A program made the translations under genes and the position numbers. The notes under the pieces were generated by a model. It saw only the letters and a list, made by a program, of their open reading frames with translations, did not search any database and was not told the origin of the DNA. 64,000 bases of DNA from Centroscyllium fabricii (taxonomy: Eukaryota), in contig JBNRSN020000025.1 in the NCBI GenBank assembly GCA_051313645.2, forward strand, positions 36,518,001 to 36,582,000, written 5' to 3'. This document shows positions 6,330-10,994 of this stretch, one piece after another. Numbering within the stretch: position 1 is the stretch's first letter; every line of letters starts with the position of its first letter.

Positions 6330-6450
6330 GGTTGAGCCCTGTGATTGACAGCTACTCCGGGATGGGGGGGACGCGTGCTTCTTGCGCATGCGCTCTGAGG
6401 GCCCGGCCCTGGTTGCCAGGTGACAGCGTCCTGGTGTTTAAAGATGGCGT
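6330..6450. promoter_or_regulatory. CpG-rich putative bidirectional promoter
   Basis: NRF1 palindrome GCGCATGCGC 6384-6393, X-box-like GTTGCCAGGTGAC 6412-6424 and YY1-like AAGATGGCG overlapping the ATG at 6444; lies between divergent genes. Confidence 0.6.
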
Positions 6451-6531
6451 CGCGCTGGCGGCTGCTGCTATTGGTGGCGGCGGCGGTGGGCGGGGCCGGC
6501 CCGGAGGGGGAGGCGGAGCCAGAGCAAGGAG
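6444..6531 (+). CDS. THSD8: Exon 1 (signal peptide) of a secreted TSP1-like protein, THSD8-like
   Basis: Kozak AAGATGG; MASRWRLLLLVAAAVGGAGPEGEAEPEQG; phase-1 donor GAG|GTAAAT, compatible with exon 2. Confidence 0.7.
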
Positions 6532-6767
6532 GTAAATGGCGAGGACGGGAAAGCCAGGCTGTCGCACCCCAAACCCAGGCCCCAGTCTGGGGAAAGGCCG
6601 GGGGGGGAAAGTCAGGCCAAGGGTTGGGGCGCTGGCTGTCAGAGGCCAGTGAACGTGAACGTGAACGTGAACGTGAAGCAATTCCGCCGGTGGCAGAGTG
6701 AAATCAGCAACGATTCGTGACCTCGGCCCATTGGAACAAACTAAACCCGACAAAGCCTGATATTAAC

Positions 6768-7771
6768 AGCAAATGCTGGAAAAACTCAGCAGGCCAGGCA
6801 ACATCCGTGGAGAGAAATATGGAGTAAAGGGTCTGAACCCGAAACGTCGACTCAATTCAATTCAAATTGCTTTATTGGTATGACAAGATACATCTTATGT
6901 TGCCAAAGCACAGAAAAAGGACATATAAAATTGAACATACACATGCAGATCTAGACATACAGTGAATGGACAAATATACCCATGTATACATATACATACA
7001 CACATATAATACACATATAATCTTTTCTTAGATTCAATGGTCACTGGTTGTCCCTCTGCTTATGGCAAGCTGTGACGTAGTTTGCCGCTAATTTTACACA
7101 GTTCCTCTGTTCCCCCAATAGATATGGGAGTTTTTGGTGGTCGTTCAAATTTTTGAATTCAGGGCATGTTTTTATGAATTTTGGGTAGAAATTTCCCCTT
7201 ATGTCCTGATAGTTTTCACAAGTTGTGAGGAAGTGCAGCTCTGTCTCCACCACTCCCTGACTGCAGTGAGAGCACAGCCTTTCCTCTCTGGGCAGCCAGG
7301 TCTGCCTGTGTCTGCCTTTTTCAATGGCTAGGTTATGCTCACTACGTCTGTACATTGTCAGGGTTTTTCTCAGTTTGCTATCTTTCACCATGACTCTATA
7401 TTTCTTTCCACGGATGTTGCCTGGCCTACTGAGTTTTTCCAGCATTTTCTGTTGTTATTTCGGATTTCCAGCATCCGCAGTATTTTGCTATCATGAGGCT
7501 AGGTTCAGATCAGCCATGTGATCTCCTGGACAAGTTTTGATCGCCTAGATGGGTCGGAGAGGAATTTCTCAGATTTTTTCTCCCAAATTGGCACCTGGAT
7601 TTTTAATCTGGTTTTCCGCCTCTCCCGGGATCTCACATGGGTTCGGGTGGGATGGAGAGCAAAAGTAGATTTGAGGTTAGGATCAGATCAGCCATGATCT
7701 TGTTGAATGGCGGAGCGGGCTTGAAGGGCCGATTGGCCTACTCCTGCTCCTATTTCTTATGTTCTTATGTA
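6768..7771 (+). mobile_element. Composite insertion: Penelope pLTR inverted repeat plus CR1 3' end, bounded by a 16-bp TSD
   Basis: AAAGCCTGATATTAAC at 6752-6767 and 7772-7787; inverted arms ~6768-6826 and ~7394-7452; CR1 tail at ~7495-7771. Confidence 0.75.
6854..7392 (-). mobile_element. RTEX-like non-LTR retrotransposon 3' end with CCHC motif
   Basis: HNLAIEKGRH...PREERLCSHC...ETELHFLTTC; AATAAA followed by a (TTGAA)n tail; GACTC duplicated on both sides. Clade assignment is from memory. Confidence 0.7.
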
Positions 7772-8229
7772 AAAGCCTGATATTAACCGGCGGGAAGGTG
7801 TCACCTCAGCACCTGGGGAGCATCTGGTGGCTGGCTGGTGTCTGTGAGGAATGTGAGTGACCCCCTGTGTCAAACACTGCTGGGATTTGACCCTCTGCTC
7901 AGGGCTGATCTCCCGGGTCTGAGTTTGTTCCCTGGCTCTGTCGCTGAGTGAGTTTATCTGGGACCAGATTAAGACCTAAAGCCATGGTGGAGTGAGATGG
8001 GGTGGGGAGTGGGGATTTTCTTGTGGAGCACATGTGGTTACTGTCACAAGGACAGAAGCTTCTCAAATATGCAGCAGCATTGATGAAGCCAATCCCCAGA
8101 AAGGCCGGTTAAACTGGTAAATTGTGAGGAGCTGGGGTCCGTCAGTCTCGGACAGTGAGAGGTTTGTTATTTTTCATTAGAGCTTATGGTTAAGGGACGA
8201 CCTGTTCAAAGTTTCCAAAATTATGAAGG

Positions 8230-9865
8230 GACAGCGGCTGCATGGATACAAAGTTGGCTAAGGGACGGAAAGCAGAGAGTAGTGGTGAAAGGTTGTTTTT
8301 TCCAACTGGAGGGAAGTATACAGTGGTGTTCCCCAGGGGTCAGTATTAGGACCGCTGCTCTTTTCGATACGTATTAATGGCATAAGGGCATAAGTCCAAA
8401 GCTTGCAGATGATCCAAAACTCAGAAATGTGTAGTAAACAATGTGGAGGATAGTAACTGATTTCAGGGGGACACAGACTGGTCAAATGGGCAGATATGTG
8501 GCAGATGAAATTTAACACAAAGAAGTGTGAAGTGATACACTTTGGTAGGAAGAGTCGAAGAGGCAATGTGAACTAATTGGTACAATTTTAAAGCAAGTGT
8601 AGGAACAGAGAGACCTGGGGGTGTATGCACACAAATCCTTGAAGGTAGCAAGACAAGTTTAGAAGGCTGTTAAAACATATGGGATTCTTGACTTTATAAA
8701 TAGAGTACAAAAGCTAAACCTTGAAAAAACACTGGTTAGGCCTCAGCTGGAGTATTGTGTCCAATAATACTGGAGTATTGGGGCGGCACGGTGGCATAGT
8801 GGTTAGCACTGTTGCCTCACAGCACTGGAGACCCGGGTTCAAATCCAGTCTCGGGTACTATCTGTGTGGAGTTTGCACATTCTCCCCGTGTCTGCGTGGG
8901 TTTCCTCCGGGTGCTCCGGTTTCCTCCCACAGTCCAAAGATGTGCGGGTTAGGTTGATTGGCCAGGATAAATTGACCCTTAGTGTTAGGGGGATTAAATA
9001 TGTGGGGTTACGGGGATAGGGTGGGATATGTGTCGGTGCAGGCTCGATAGGGATCGAGGGATATAGGGACAAGGCAGGGGTGGTGTACTGGGTTTGGATG
9101 ATCAGCCATGATCTCATTGAATGGCGGAGCAGGCTCGAAGGGCCGAATGGCCTACTCCTACTCCTGCTCCTATCTTCTATGTTTCTATGGGTCCCCGAAT
9201 GGCCTACTCCTGCTCCTATGTTTCGATGCCTATGTCCAATTCTGGGCACCACATTTTAGGAAGGATGTTAAGGCCTTGGAAAGTGTGCAGAGGAGATTTA
9301 CTAGAATGGTACCAGGGATGCGAGACTTCAGATCCATGGAGAGACTGGAGAAGCTGGGCCTGTTCTCCTTCGAGCAGAGAAGGTTAAGAGGTAATTTGAT
9401 AGGTTGGTTGTTAGGATCAGATCAGCCATGATCTTACTGAATGGCGGGGCAGGCTCGAAGGGCCGATTGGCCTACTCTTGCTCCTATTTCTTATGTTCTT
9501 ATGTTTAGAATCATGAAGGGTTTTGATAGAGTAAATAAGGAGACACTGTTTCCAGTGGCAGAAGGGTTGATAATCAGAGGACACGGATTTAAGGTGATTG
9601 GCAAAAGAACCAGAGGCGACATAAGGAATCATTTTTTACACAGCAAATTGTTGTGACCTGGAATGCGCTGCCTGAAAGGGTGGTGGAAGCAGATTCAATA
9701 ATAACTTTCAAAAGAGAACTGGATAAATACTTGAATGGGGAAATACAGTGTTGTGGGGAAAGAGCAGAGGTATGGGGTTAATGGGATAGCTCTACCGAAG
9801 AGCTGGCACAAGCATGATGGGCCGAATGGTCATCTTCTGTGCTGTATCATTCTGTGATTCTGTGA
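8230..9865 (+). mobile_element. Degenerate CR1 LINE (RT and 3' end) with nested SINE and CR1 tails
   Basis: [14 protein letters not shown] [15 protein letters not shown]..., [10 protein letters not shown]; ends in an ATTCTGTG-type tail. Confidence 0.85.
8781..9190 (+). mobile_element. HE1-type tRNA/V-SINE with HER1 tail
   Basis: A box TGGCATAGTGG and B box GGTTCAAATCC; V-domain TGTGTGGAGTTTGCACATTCTCCCCGTG; tail shared with HER1. Confidence 0.88.
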
Positions 9866-10433
9866 AGAGGTAAATAGCCGCTGTCCCTTCATTCCACTAG
9901 TTGGCGAGATAGTGACAGATCCCAAATTTAACACCAGATGGTTAGAATTTCTTTCAGATATCAATGTTGAAGCAGAGTCCATAAATTATTTAAAAGAGAA
10001 TAAGACAGTCATTTGAAAAAGAGGAACAGTGAAATGTTCGGGGAGAGAACAGGACAGTGGGATTAGACTGGTTGCCTCACGTGGGGAAAAGCAGTGGCGA
10101 TGGGCCAAAGCTGTAACATTTTGCGATTCTATGAATTGTAACATCAGGAAATGTCTATTTATGTCATCGTTTCCAAATGGCTAACCACAGAATGGGGAGC
10201 TGCAGATAGCAAAAGAGCAAATACCTTAGATCAGAAAGTTGCTTTGCTGGGTGAAACTTCAGAGTTGAAATGTTTGATATTCTAATCTCTTAAATACTCA
10301 GGGAATCTACAACGACATTAAACACCATCTCGGGGCACTGGGTCGGTGTTGGCCTTGGATTCCAGTTTGTTTAAAGGGGTCTTTAGTTTTGATGAGGTTT
10401 ATGTGCGACTGTCTGCACCTCCTGTCTTCCCAG

Positions 10434-10768
10434 ATGGTCCGGTTTTCCAGTGGATCGAGTGGGAGCCCTGGGTGTGCATGTGTGACATTGGCAAACAAGG
10501 GCGGATCCGCTACTTCGTGATGTCATCGGACATAGCGAGGAGCAACGTGAGCATGGATGAATTCTGGCAGGTGAAGCCGTGCGCCCTCGCCGACTGTGCG
10601 AACTGCCAGACCACTGAGTGCCCGATCCCGGAGGTCGGAGTGAGAGCGGCCCCGCGATTCGGCCGCCGCTTCAGCCGGCCCGCCGCCAGCAACCTGCGAA
10701 TCCCCAACACCAAACCCGCCCAGGCAAATTCCTACGACAGTCTGCCGGTGATCGACGATGTTGGATAA
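10434..10768 (+). CDS. THSD8: Exon 2 of the THSD8-like protein (TSP1-like domain plus C-terminal extension)
   Basis: Acceptor CCTCCTGTCTTCCCAG|; WIEWEPWVCMCDIGKQGRIR...WQVKPCALADCANCQTTEC has the Trp/Cys spacing I recall for THSD8; TAA at 10766-10768; AATAAA at 10804. Confidence 0.75.
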
Positions 10769-10994
10769 GGCTCAGCAGCCTCAAGCTCTGCTCATTTTAC
10801 AGAAATAAATCATATCGCAGACAGTTTATTTAAACTTTGTGTTTCAGTGACCCCCTCAGACTGTCTCCGAGACACAGGTTCCCTTTGACATCCATTTGCC
10901 TGCTCATTCTTACTGAGTTAGTCTAGACAGCGAGTGTGTCCAAACTCAGGTATAGCCGAGCCCAATCCTGTCCTCAAACTAGTTCGACCTGGTC

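Follow-up and report, generated by a model that had tools for sequence, protein, structure and literature searches.

What is the small cysteine- and tryptophan-rich gene that lies between MIIP and a probable TNFRSF8 in the shark Centroscyllium fabricii, and is it the shark copy of mammalian THSD8? The window analysed here is a stretch of 64,000 nucleotides (nt) of the assembly GCA_051313645.2 (contig JBNRSN020000025.1, positions 36,518,001 to 36,582,000 of the forward strand), and coordinates refer to it unless stated otherwise. An earlier inspection of the letters alone, called here the sequence-only reading, had spliced two exons into a secreted 140-residue protein and had equated it with THSD8. 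Our sequence comparisons confirm a real two-exon gene under purifying selection, with a predicted junction at 6531/10434, which is probably an ancient paralogue of THSD8. On balance we favour a gene of the MIIP–TNFRSF8 locus encoding a predicted secreted protein composed of one domain resembling a thrombospondin type 1 repeat (TSR), a linker and an acidic tail, the tail being the putative site through which the protein, as an extracellular ligand, binds its partner.

The gene lies on the plus strand throughout. The coding part of exon 1 (6444–6531; 88 nt) starts in the context AAAG-ATG-G and encodes the initiator Met, a predicted signal peptide (residues 1 to about 19) and a short acidic spacer, and is followed by a GT donor at 6532 (GAG/GTAAAT, phase 1). 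The predicted intron (6532–10433; 3,902 nt, GT...AG) ends in a pyrimidine tract and CCCAG. Exon 2 encodes the TSR-like core (10434–10621, residues 30–92), recognized by invariant columns, predicted strands and weak TSR matches, then a variable linker predicted to be disordered (10622–10729, residues 93–128) and, with the stop codon, a conserved acidic C-terminal tail (10730–10768, residues 129–140). The phase-1 join (G/AT, Asp) yields an open frame of 140 amino acids (aa) closed by TAA at 10766–10768. A poly(A) signal AATAAA is found at 10804–10809, with a likely cleavage site near 10826. The gene starts in a GC/CpG-rich segment, probably its promoter region (6201–6800, no strand assigned), where GC reaches 0.70 and the observed/expected CpG ratio is 0.6–0.76; it contains, at 6384–6393, the palindrome GCGCATGCGC, which we take to be an NRF1-type site.

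The gene is a single match in the 7.2-Gb shark genome, and its protein has full-length relatives in the databases: all four candidates align with the exon-2 product, with 82% identity for basking shark, 72% for bamboo shark, 70% for skate and 45% for lizard. The exon-1 peptide is identical to the N-terminus of the basking-shark protein at 18 of 27 positions. We also aligned to positions 10200–10960 contigs from four runs (X1, X2, X5 and X9) of three related organisms, presumed to be RNA. The first base of X2 and X5 falls exactly on 10434, and X2 has in addition a low-depth intron piece and extends to 10893. X1 terminates in 23 A directly behind 10826, 17 nt downstream of AATAAA; the window itself has no excess of A there. 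X1, X2 and X5, which represent two of these organisms, show 13 coding differences from the window in exon 2, ten of them silent (a stop-to-stop change included) against an expected 22% (p 4e-5), and their indels within exon 2 are found exclusively 3' of the stop codon. In the more distant X9, three of seven differences are silent. The full-length relatives and the silent-site excess indicate more than a chance frame, and the two-exon gene of the sequence-only reading, with its predicted in-frame splice and its poly(A) signal upstream of a poly(A) tail in a related species, holds, as does the cartilaginous-fish source it proposed, here an elasmobranch.

The core carries the motif W36-x-x-W39-x-x-W42-x-C44-x-C46, an Arg pair R53-x-R55 and a group of four cysteines, C79-x4-C84-x2-C87-x4-C92, together with an N-glycosylation sequon at N67. 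The tryptophan triplet W36/W39/W42 with R53/R55 is, at the level of the motif, that of TSR C-mannosylation, and the thrombospondin-type core proposed earlier is thus present. In the accessible part of PMC6954052, C-mannosylation of WxxWxxW, a Trp-Arg ladder and disulfides are described as TSR chemistry. Compared with canonical TSP1 repeats (Pfam TSP_1; thrombospondin-1, properdin, F-spondin and C6–C9), the protein shares the WxxWxxW strand, the Arg pair, six cysteines and a three-stranded model, but it has C-x-C, its last four cysteines are grouped at the end of the domain, its structural Z-scores do not exceed 3.2 and Pfam TSP_1 gives no match to it at E 10. Canonical TSRs have a C-x-x-S/T-C fucosylation stretch where the shark protein has C-x-C. 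The N-terminus reaches a hydropathy peak of 3.2 at residues 7–15, which fits the predicted signal peptide, as do the N-termini of the orthologues, and no membrane anchor is found in the 140-aa protein (19-residue hydropathy maximum 0.34).

An AlphaFold2 model from a 40-row alignment shows a stranded core with a predicted local distance difference test score (pLDDT) of 72–93 (residues 1–60 of the exon-2 product) and a linker with pLDDT below 50 over most of its length. The 15 best rows of a structure search with it are all TSR-bearing entries, with Z-scores of 2.6–3.2. A search of the PDB sequences with the family profile gave no match at E 10. A complex prediction between core (1–66) and tail (79–110, both in exon-2 product numbering) scored 0.01 and gives no evidence either way. 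The sole match in a Pfam scan of the protein is PMSI1 (PF15322), at E 0.26 and 10.9 bits against a cut-off of 29.6; this family, that of MENT/C1orf56, has a similar W-x-x-W-x-C-x-C and R-x-R core and matches 15 of 21 aligned family members, all below cut-off. The PMSI1-like frame of the shark differs from the window protein in its length of more than 600 aa, its location (contig G000:C1467) and its Cys spacing, C-x4-C-x-C-x6-C. This single frame ends in the MENT-like W-x-x-W-x-C-x-C domain (L059, G000:C1467:28254-28457, minus strand) and is likely the shark MENT.

The kinship with THSD8 is well marked. With human THSD8 as reference, all 21 aligned rows share two Trp (WxxW), six Cys, two Arg (RxR) and one Gln, and the window protein has the whole family core pattern, W-x-x-W-x-C-x-C ... 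R-x-R ... Q-x-x-x-C-x4-C-x2-C-x4-C. A profile search over 1.84 billion representative proteins returned 16 matches: nine close relatives, a second sturgeon protein (E 3e-8), rabbit THSD8 (2e-5), a lamprey protein (2.7e-4) and four unrelated proteins. The last four, namely two repeat proteins with only a short W-x-x-x-P-C stretch, an EGF-repeat-like protein and a protein of 5,532 aa, were rejected; two of them outscore the lamprey protein, which was retained because all invariant core positions are present in it. The Atlas puts the THSD8 cluster in first place, at 0.91, whether the skate orthologue or the second sturgeon protein is the query. Conversely, a profile made from eutherian sequences only matches exon 2 of the window gene at E 1.7e-10 in a six-frame text of 464 kb. 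The intron lies nine residues before the first invariant Trp, leaving the core in one exon, and mammalian THSD8 has the same arrangement, its intron position being read from unspliced read-through models and its phase inferred. Human THSD8 is itself below the Pfam TSP_1 cut-off (18.3 versus 21.6 bits). The relationship to THSD8 proposed from the sequence is therefore borne out by the six Cys, WxxW, RxR and Gln and by the Atlas ranking, and the age proposed for the gene, at least that of the jawed-vertebrate ancestor, stands.

Kinship does not make the gene the shark THSD8. The named eutherian THSD8 proteins (human and 28 others) resemble the window protein in their predicted signal peptide, single TSR-like core and intron position, with 28% identity; they differ in ending four residues after the last Cys, in having no acidic tail and two of the three Trp, and in a core charge of +3 versus −2. 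The loci differ as well. The accessible text of PMC10378902 lists horse THSD8 among RNASEH2A, PRDX2 and JUNB, whereas the shark gene stands between MIIP and a probable TNFRSF8. On its contig (C767 in our numbering) the order, all on the plus strand, is the MIIP exons (36,492,756–36,514,348 of the contig; 10–32 kb upstream), the window gene, tumour necrosis factor receptor (TNFR) exons and a second TNFR set near 36,629,500. Pfam MIIP scored above cut-off for the three MIIP exons tested. The first TNFR set consists of two cysteine-rich exons (50808–50948 and 52085–52189, plus strand), found by tblastn with a turtle TNFRSF8-like model and weakly matched by TNFR_c6; their position makes them likely TNFRSF8. 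The second set belongs to a tandem TNF-receptor gene (G000:C767:36629486-36629828, plus strand). Judged by position and the human order, the two genes are likely TNFRSF8 and TNFRSF1B. MIIP models of alligator and pit viper end in the family protein and a TNFRSF8-like model of box turtle begins with it, so the same neighbours are present in reptiles. The available part of a preprint (bioRxiv 10.1101/2025.02.26.640358) describes Miip–Tnfrsf8 as a conserved block in mammals.

The shark counterpart of the THSD8 block is elsewhere: the RNase HII match, the best AhpC-TSA match and a Jun match lie within 250 kb on another contig, C1111. Three family profiles run over these 250 kb gave nothing below E 0.15, whereas they match the window gene at 1e-10 to 5e-28; the weak C1111 matches (E 0.15–0.57) lack the family pattern and were discarded. 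Neither human THSD8 nor the second protein of the sturgeon Huso, used as queries, revealed a second family member in the shark genome; the latter gave two further matches (E 0.07 and 0.75), both containing stops. The shark thus appears to be without a THSD8-type gene. The reciprocal-hit check proposed by the sequence-only reading gave the expected answer and is nonetheless misleading for orthology. Human THSD8 as a query finds the window gene as its only match in the shark genome (E 0.008), so best-hit tests would name it the orthologue, but this outcome is also expected under reciprocal loss.

The tree agrees with the synteny. It was built from 38 rows over 60 core columns, with two N-terminally cut Logan rows excluded. 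A branch with support of 94/93 separates the 19 rows that bear the tail (sharks, skate, sturgeons, squamates, turtle and platypus) from eutherian THSD8 and from the lamprey and second sturgeon proteins. Between the eutherian THSD8 crown and the crown of the tail group lie about 3.3 changes per site, compared with 0.24 from the latter to platypus. Approximately unbiased (AU) tests were run on 20–21 of the 38 rows; with 20 rows, grouping eutherians with platypus (p 0.015), eutherians with the amniote tail genes (p 0.045) or all bony-vertebrate members in one clade (p 0.028) is rejected, and eutherians with the second sturgeon gene (p 0.22) or the two sturgeon genes together (p 0.18) are both allowed. 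Huso carries both a tail gene and the tail-less second gene. The Huso (P0016, gene HHUSO_G21721) and river lamprey (P0020) proteins are the tail-less non-mammalian members; if fishes have true THSD8-type genes, these are the likeliest. Synteny and tree together speak against the earlier identification of the window gene with mammalian THSD8 and point to a separate paralogue.

What most clearly sets this paralogue apart is its tail. After the last Cys, 48 residues follow in the shark protein versus four in human THSD8, so the length of the C-terminal extension, estimated earlier at about 45 aa, is right; the extension is not particular to this copy, since sturgeons, reptiles and platypus share it and it contains the best-conserved part of the protein. 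The consensus is Y-[DE]-x-L-P-x-[VIL]-D-D-x-G, in which all 21 aligned rows keep Y, L, P, D and D, and 20 keep G. Its part Y-[DE]-x-L-P-x-[VIL]-D-D recurs in 23 of the 24 tail-type proteins, a partial sturgeon model being the exception, and in none of 39 THSD8-type proteins. Mean identity to the 12 non-shark copies is 74% for the tail, 46% for the core (two rows being N-terminally cut) and 14% for the linker, which measures 15 residues in sturgeons and 36–39 elsewhere and is basic in sharks and acidic in the non-shark copies. The likeliest reason for a predicted unstructured tail to be conserved above the folded domain is that it binds a single conserved partner.

A profile search for tail-type proteins of 55–296 aa retained 16 of 5,184 candidates, including five cartilaginous fishes, the sterlet, five squamates, a turtle and platypus. 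A search with rabbit THSD8 retained 39 of 543 candidates, of which the 29 named are all eutherian. No tail-type protein of therians, birds, amphibians or teleosts was among the profile-search matches, which cover protein collections only. The gene persists in sharks, rays, sturgeons, squamates, turtles, alligator and platypus; therian mammals have probably lost it. Orthologues in the databases have the same core and tail under automatic labels, either THSD8-like or uncharacterised: XP_041062916 of white shark, XP_055515243 of skate, XP_033897753 of sterlet, XP_039768134 of platypus and XP_077168259 of gecko, the last named THSD8. Annotation also hides copies (P0011, P0015, P0067, P0069 and P0070): they are fused behind MIIP in alligator and pit viper and before TNFRSF8 in box turtle, and others are named tyrosine phosphatase in big-headed turtle and THSD8 in gecko.

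The following working can be proposed for the protein. The predicted signal peptide would direct it to the endoplasmic reticulum (ER), where DPY19 enzymes would C-mannosylate the tryptophans of WxxWxxW; these would then stack with R53 and R55, and three disulfides would lock the fold. Secretion is expected because no second hydrophobic segment is present. In the Golgi, Y130 would have a roughly even chance of being sulfated: the accessible part of PMC9372746 describes extracellular binding driven by single sulfotyrosines within flexible acidic segments. Once secreted, the protein would use its tail to engage a conserved receptor or protease at a basic surface, and the TSR-like domain would supply a second contact to this putative partner. 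A bolder and less likely reading is a jawed-vertebrate signalling ligand made of a TSR-like domain and a sulfotyrosine tail; therians would have lost its gene, and sharks the tail-less sister THSD8, and the near fixation of the tail from sharks to platypus would stem from its fit to one conserved receptor or protease exosite.

Several observations weigh against the secreted, tail-bearing paralogue as we describe it. The junction 6531/10434, secretion, C-mannosylation and sulfation are all predicted, and the tail partner is putative. In contig X9, 373 letters precede exon 2, of which the 30 displayed are unlike exon 1 of the window. Fold scores are weak, the best Foldseek match having E 0.24 and none falling below 0.001. 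Synteny outside this shark consists of three fused gene models. The absences come from protein collections, and fused models longer than 296 aa escape the tail-type search, in birds especially. The tree has 60 columns and long branches, and its 94/93 branch is not starred; with the shark PMSI1-like frame as a MENT-like outgroup, the AU p-values rise to 0.08 for eutherians with platypus and 0.12 for eutherians with the amniote tail genes. Finally, the second sturgeon gene, a candidate THSD8 orthologue outside mammals, scores 49 bits with the eutherian profile versus 45–48 for several sharks, and its placements with eutherians and with the other sturgeon gene (p 0.22 and 0.18) are both allowed.

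These last points bear on the strongest rival, in which the window gene is a true THSD8 orthologue: on the therian stem the gene would have been duplicated or transferred from MIIP–TNFRSF8 to the PRDX2 locus, shedding its tail and diverging rapidly, and the original would have disappeared. The shared intron position, the sole match of human THSD8 in the shark genome, the restriction of the 29 named THSD8-type matches to eutherians with no amniote seen to have both types, and the AU tests with the MENT-like outgroup, which do not reject it, are all compatible with such a relocation. But it demands the 3.3 or so changes per site on the therian stem, is rejected by the AU tests without that outgroup (p 0.015–0.045) and leaves aside the tail-less members of Huso, on the long branch, and of lamprey. 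The tree tests thus argue moderately against a relocated orthologue, which we regard as unlikely.

A second rival concerns the tail. The protein could be a prohormone: cleavage at basic linker residues would release the tail as a peptide hormone, which in fishes would also be amidated at its terminal Gly. The conserved C-terminal peptide behind a variable linker, the R-x-x-R or RR of shark linkers and the endings of the 11 shark, skate and sturgeon rows, all D-D-[VL]-G, would suit such a precursor, as would the Gly present in 20 of 21 rows. An amidated precursor has a conserved basic site and a terminal Gly; here the terminal Gly is found in fishes only, the amniote copies continuing past it with acidic residues, and Gly followed by acidic residues is no amidation signal. 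There is also no conserved basic site, non-shark linkers being acidic, and the TSR-like core is conserved in its own right, which makes the prohormone improbable, somewhat more so than relocation.

A special case of the binding tail that we favour would be a hirudin-like tail occupying a basic exosite of thrombin or of a complement protease, the protein then being a regulator of coagulation or complement. The invariant Y-[DE] (21 of 21 rows) with the hydrophobic and acidic residues behind it agrees with the loose definition given in the available text of PMC9372746, and the fibrinogen gamma-prime C-terminus, in the sequence printed in the part of PMC10876905 at hand, is identical to the tail at six of ten positions from the Tyr. 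However, ligands of exosite 2 have two or three sulfotyrosines clustered in a stretch of six residues (PMC9372746, same text) and the tail has a single Tyr. Moreover, a cytoplasmic motif of classical cadherins, as printed in the accessible part of PMC1924602, matches the tail at seven of 11 positions; it can have no bearing on a secreted protein, which shows that matches this short occur by chance. The corresponding beta-catenin-binding reading was rejected because the tail would be extracellular. Without a tyrosine cluster and with the cadherin match at this level, thrombin-type binding has low odds and is the less probable of the two alternatives for the tail.

That exon 2 is instead the terminal exon of MIIP or the first exon of TNFRSF8 read-through transcripts, as three fused database models, the predicted status of the exon 1 junction and the letters before exon 2 in X9 could suggest, is very improbable, since the gene has a CpG-rich start of its own, a signal-peptide exon that sharks conserve, its own stop and poly(A) site, hydrophobic N-termini in the stand-alone skate, sturgeon, lizard, turtle and platypus models, and a disulfide-type domain that makes little sense behind MIIP.

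Other features surround the gene. On the minus strand, a C2H2 zinc-finger exon stands head-to-head with it (4800–5886; a 208-aa open frame with about seven fingers), followed by further fingers interrupted by stops and frameshifts; the available part of the same preprint (bioRxiv 10.1101/2025.02.26.640358) reports an independent KRAB-zinc-finger cluster in the Miip–Tnfrsf8 interval of mouse and rat. GC-rich frames at 225–4076 resemble, by eye, a degenerate long terminal repeat (LTR) retrotransposon pol. Long tandem-repeat arrays occupy 11020–12750, just past the poly(A) site, and 58600–61200, near the window end. An extra copy of one MIIP exon (G000:C767:36463989-36464081, plus strand) lies about 29 kb upstream of the first.

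In the literature searched (subscription papers and supplements excluded), only list mentions of THSD8 were found in the available text of the sources, and the present group was not found described as a separate gene. For MIIP with TNFRSF8 synteny one work was found, on mouse zinc-finger clusters, and none for shark; THSD8 is absent from the text of PMC10548676, and the work retrieved on gene loss was unrelated. We take the 'thsd8b' of Xenopus for a likely slip for thsd7b. This gene sits between cxcr4 and dars according to the accessible part of PMC8811506. Automatic annotation has already given the family its label, RefSeq listing copies from white shark, skate and sturgeons as THSD8-like. 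The literature searched, in contrast, seems to hold no description of the distinct locus, the tail or the patchy range.

With that label in RefSeq the surprise is limited, and the function given here to the protein is only a prediction. Two genes merged under one database name nevertheless amount to hidden paralogy, which best-hit methods misjudge, and the analysis recovers copies that are buried in fused MIIP or TNFRSF8 models. The gene adds a candidate to the secreted-protein genes lost toward therian mammals. Its 12-residue tail, which from sharks and sturgeons to reptiles and platypus surpasses the folded domain in conservation, lends itself to use as bait in a partner search and, if the protein is indeed a signalling ligand, the partner may persist in humans as an orphan site.

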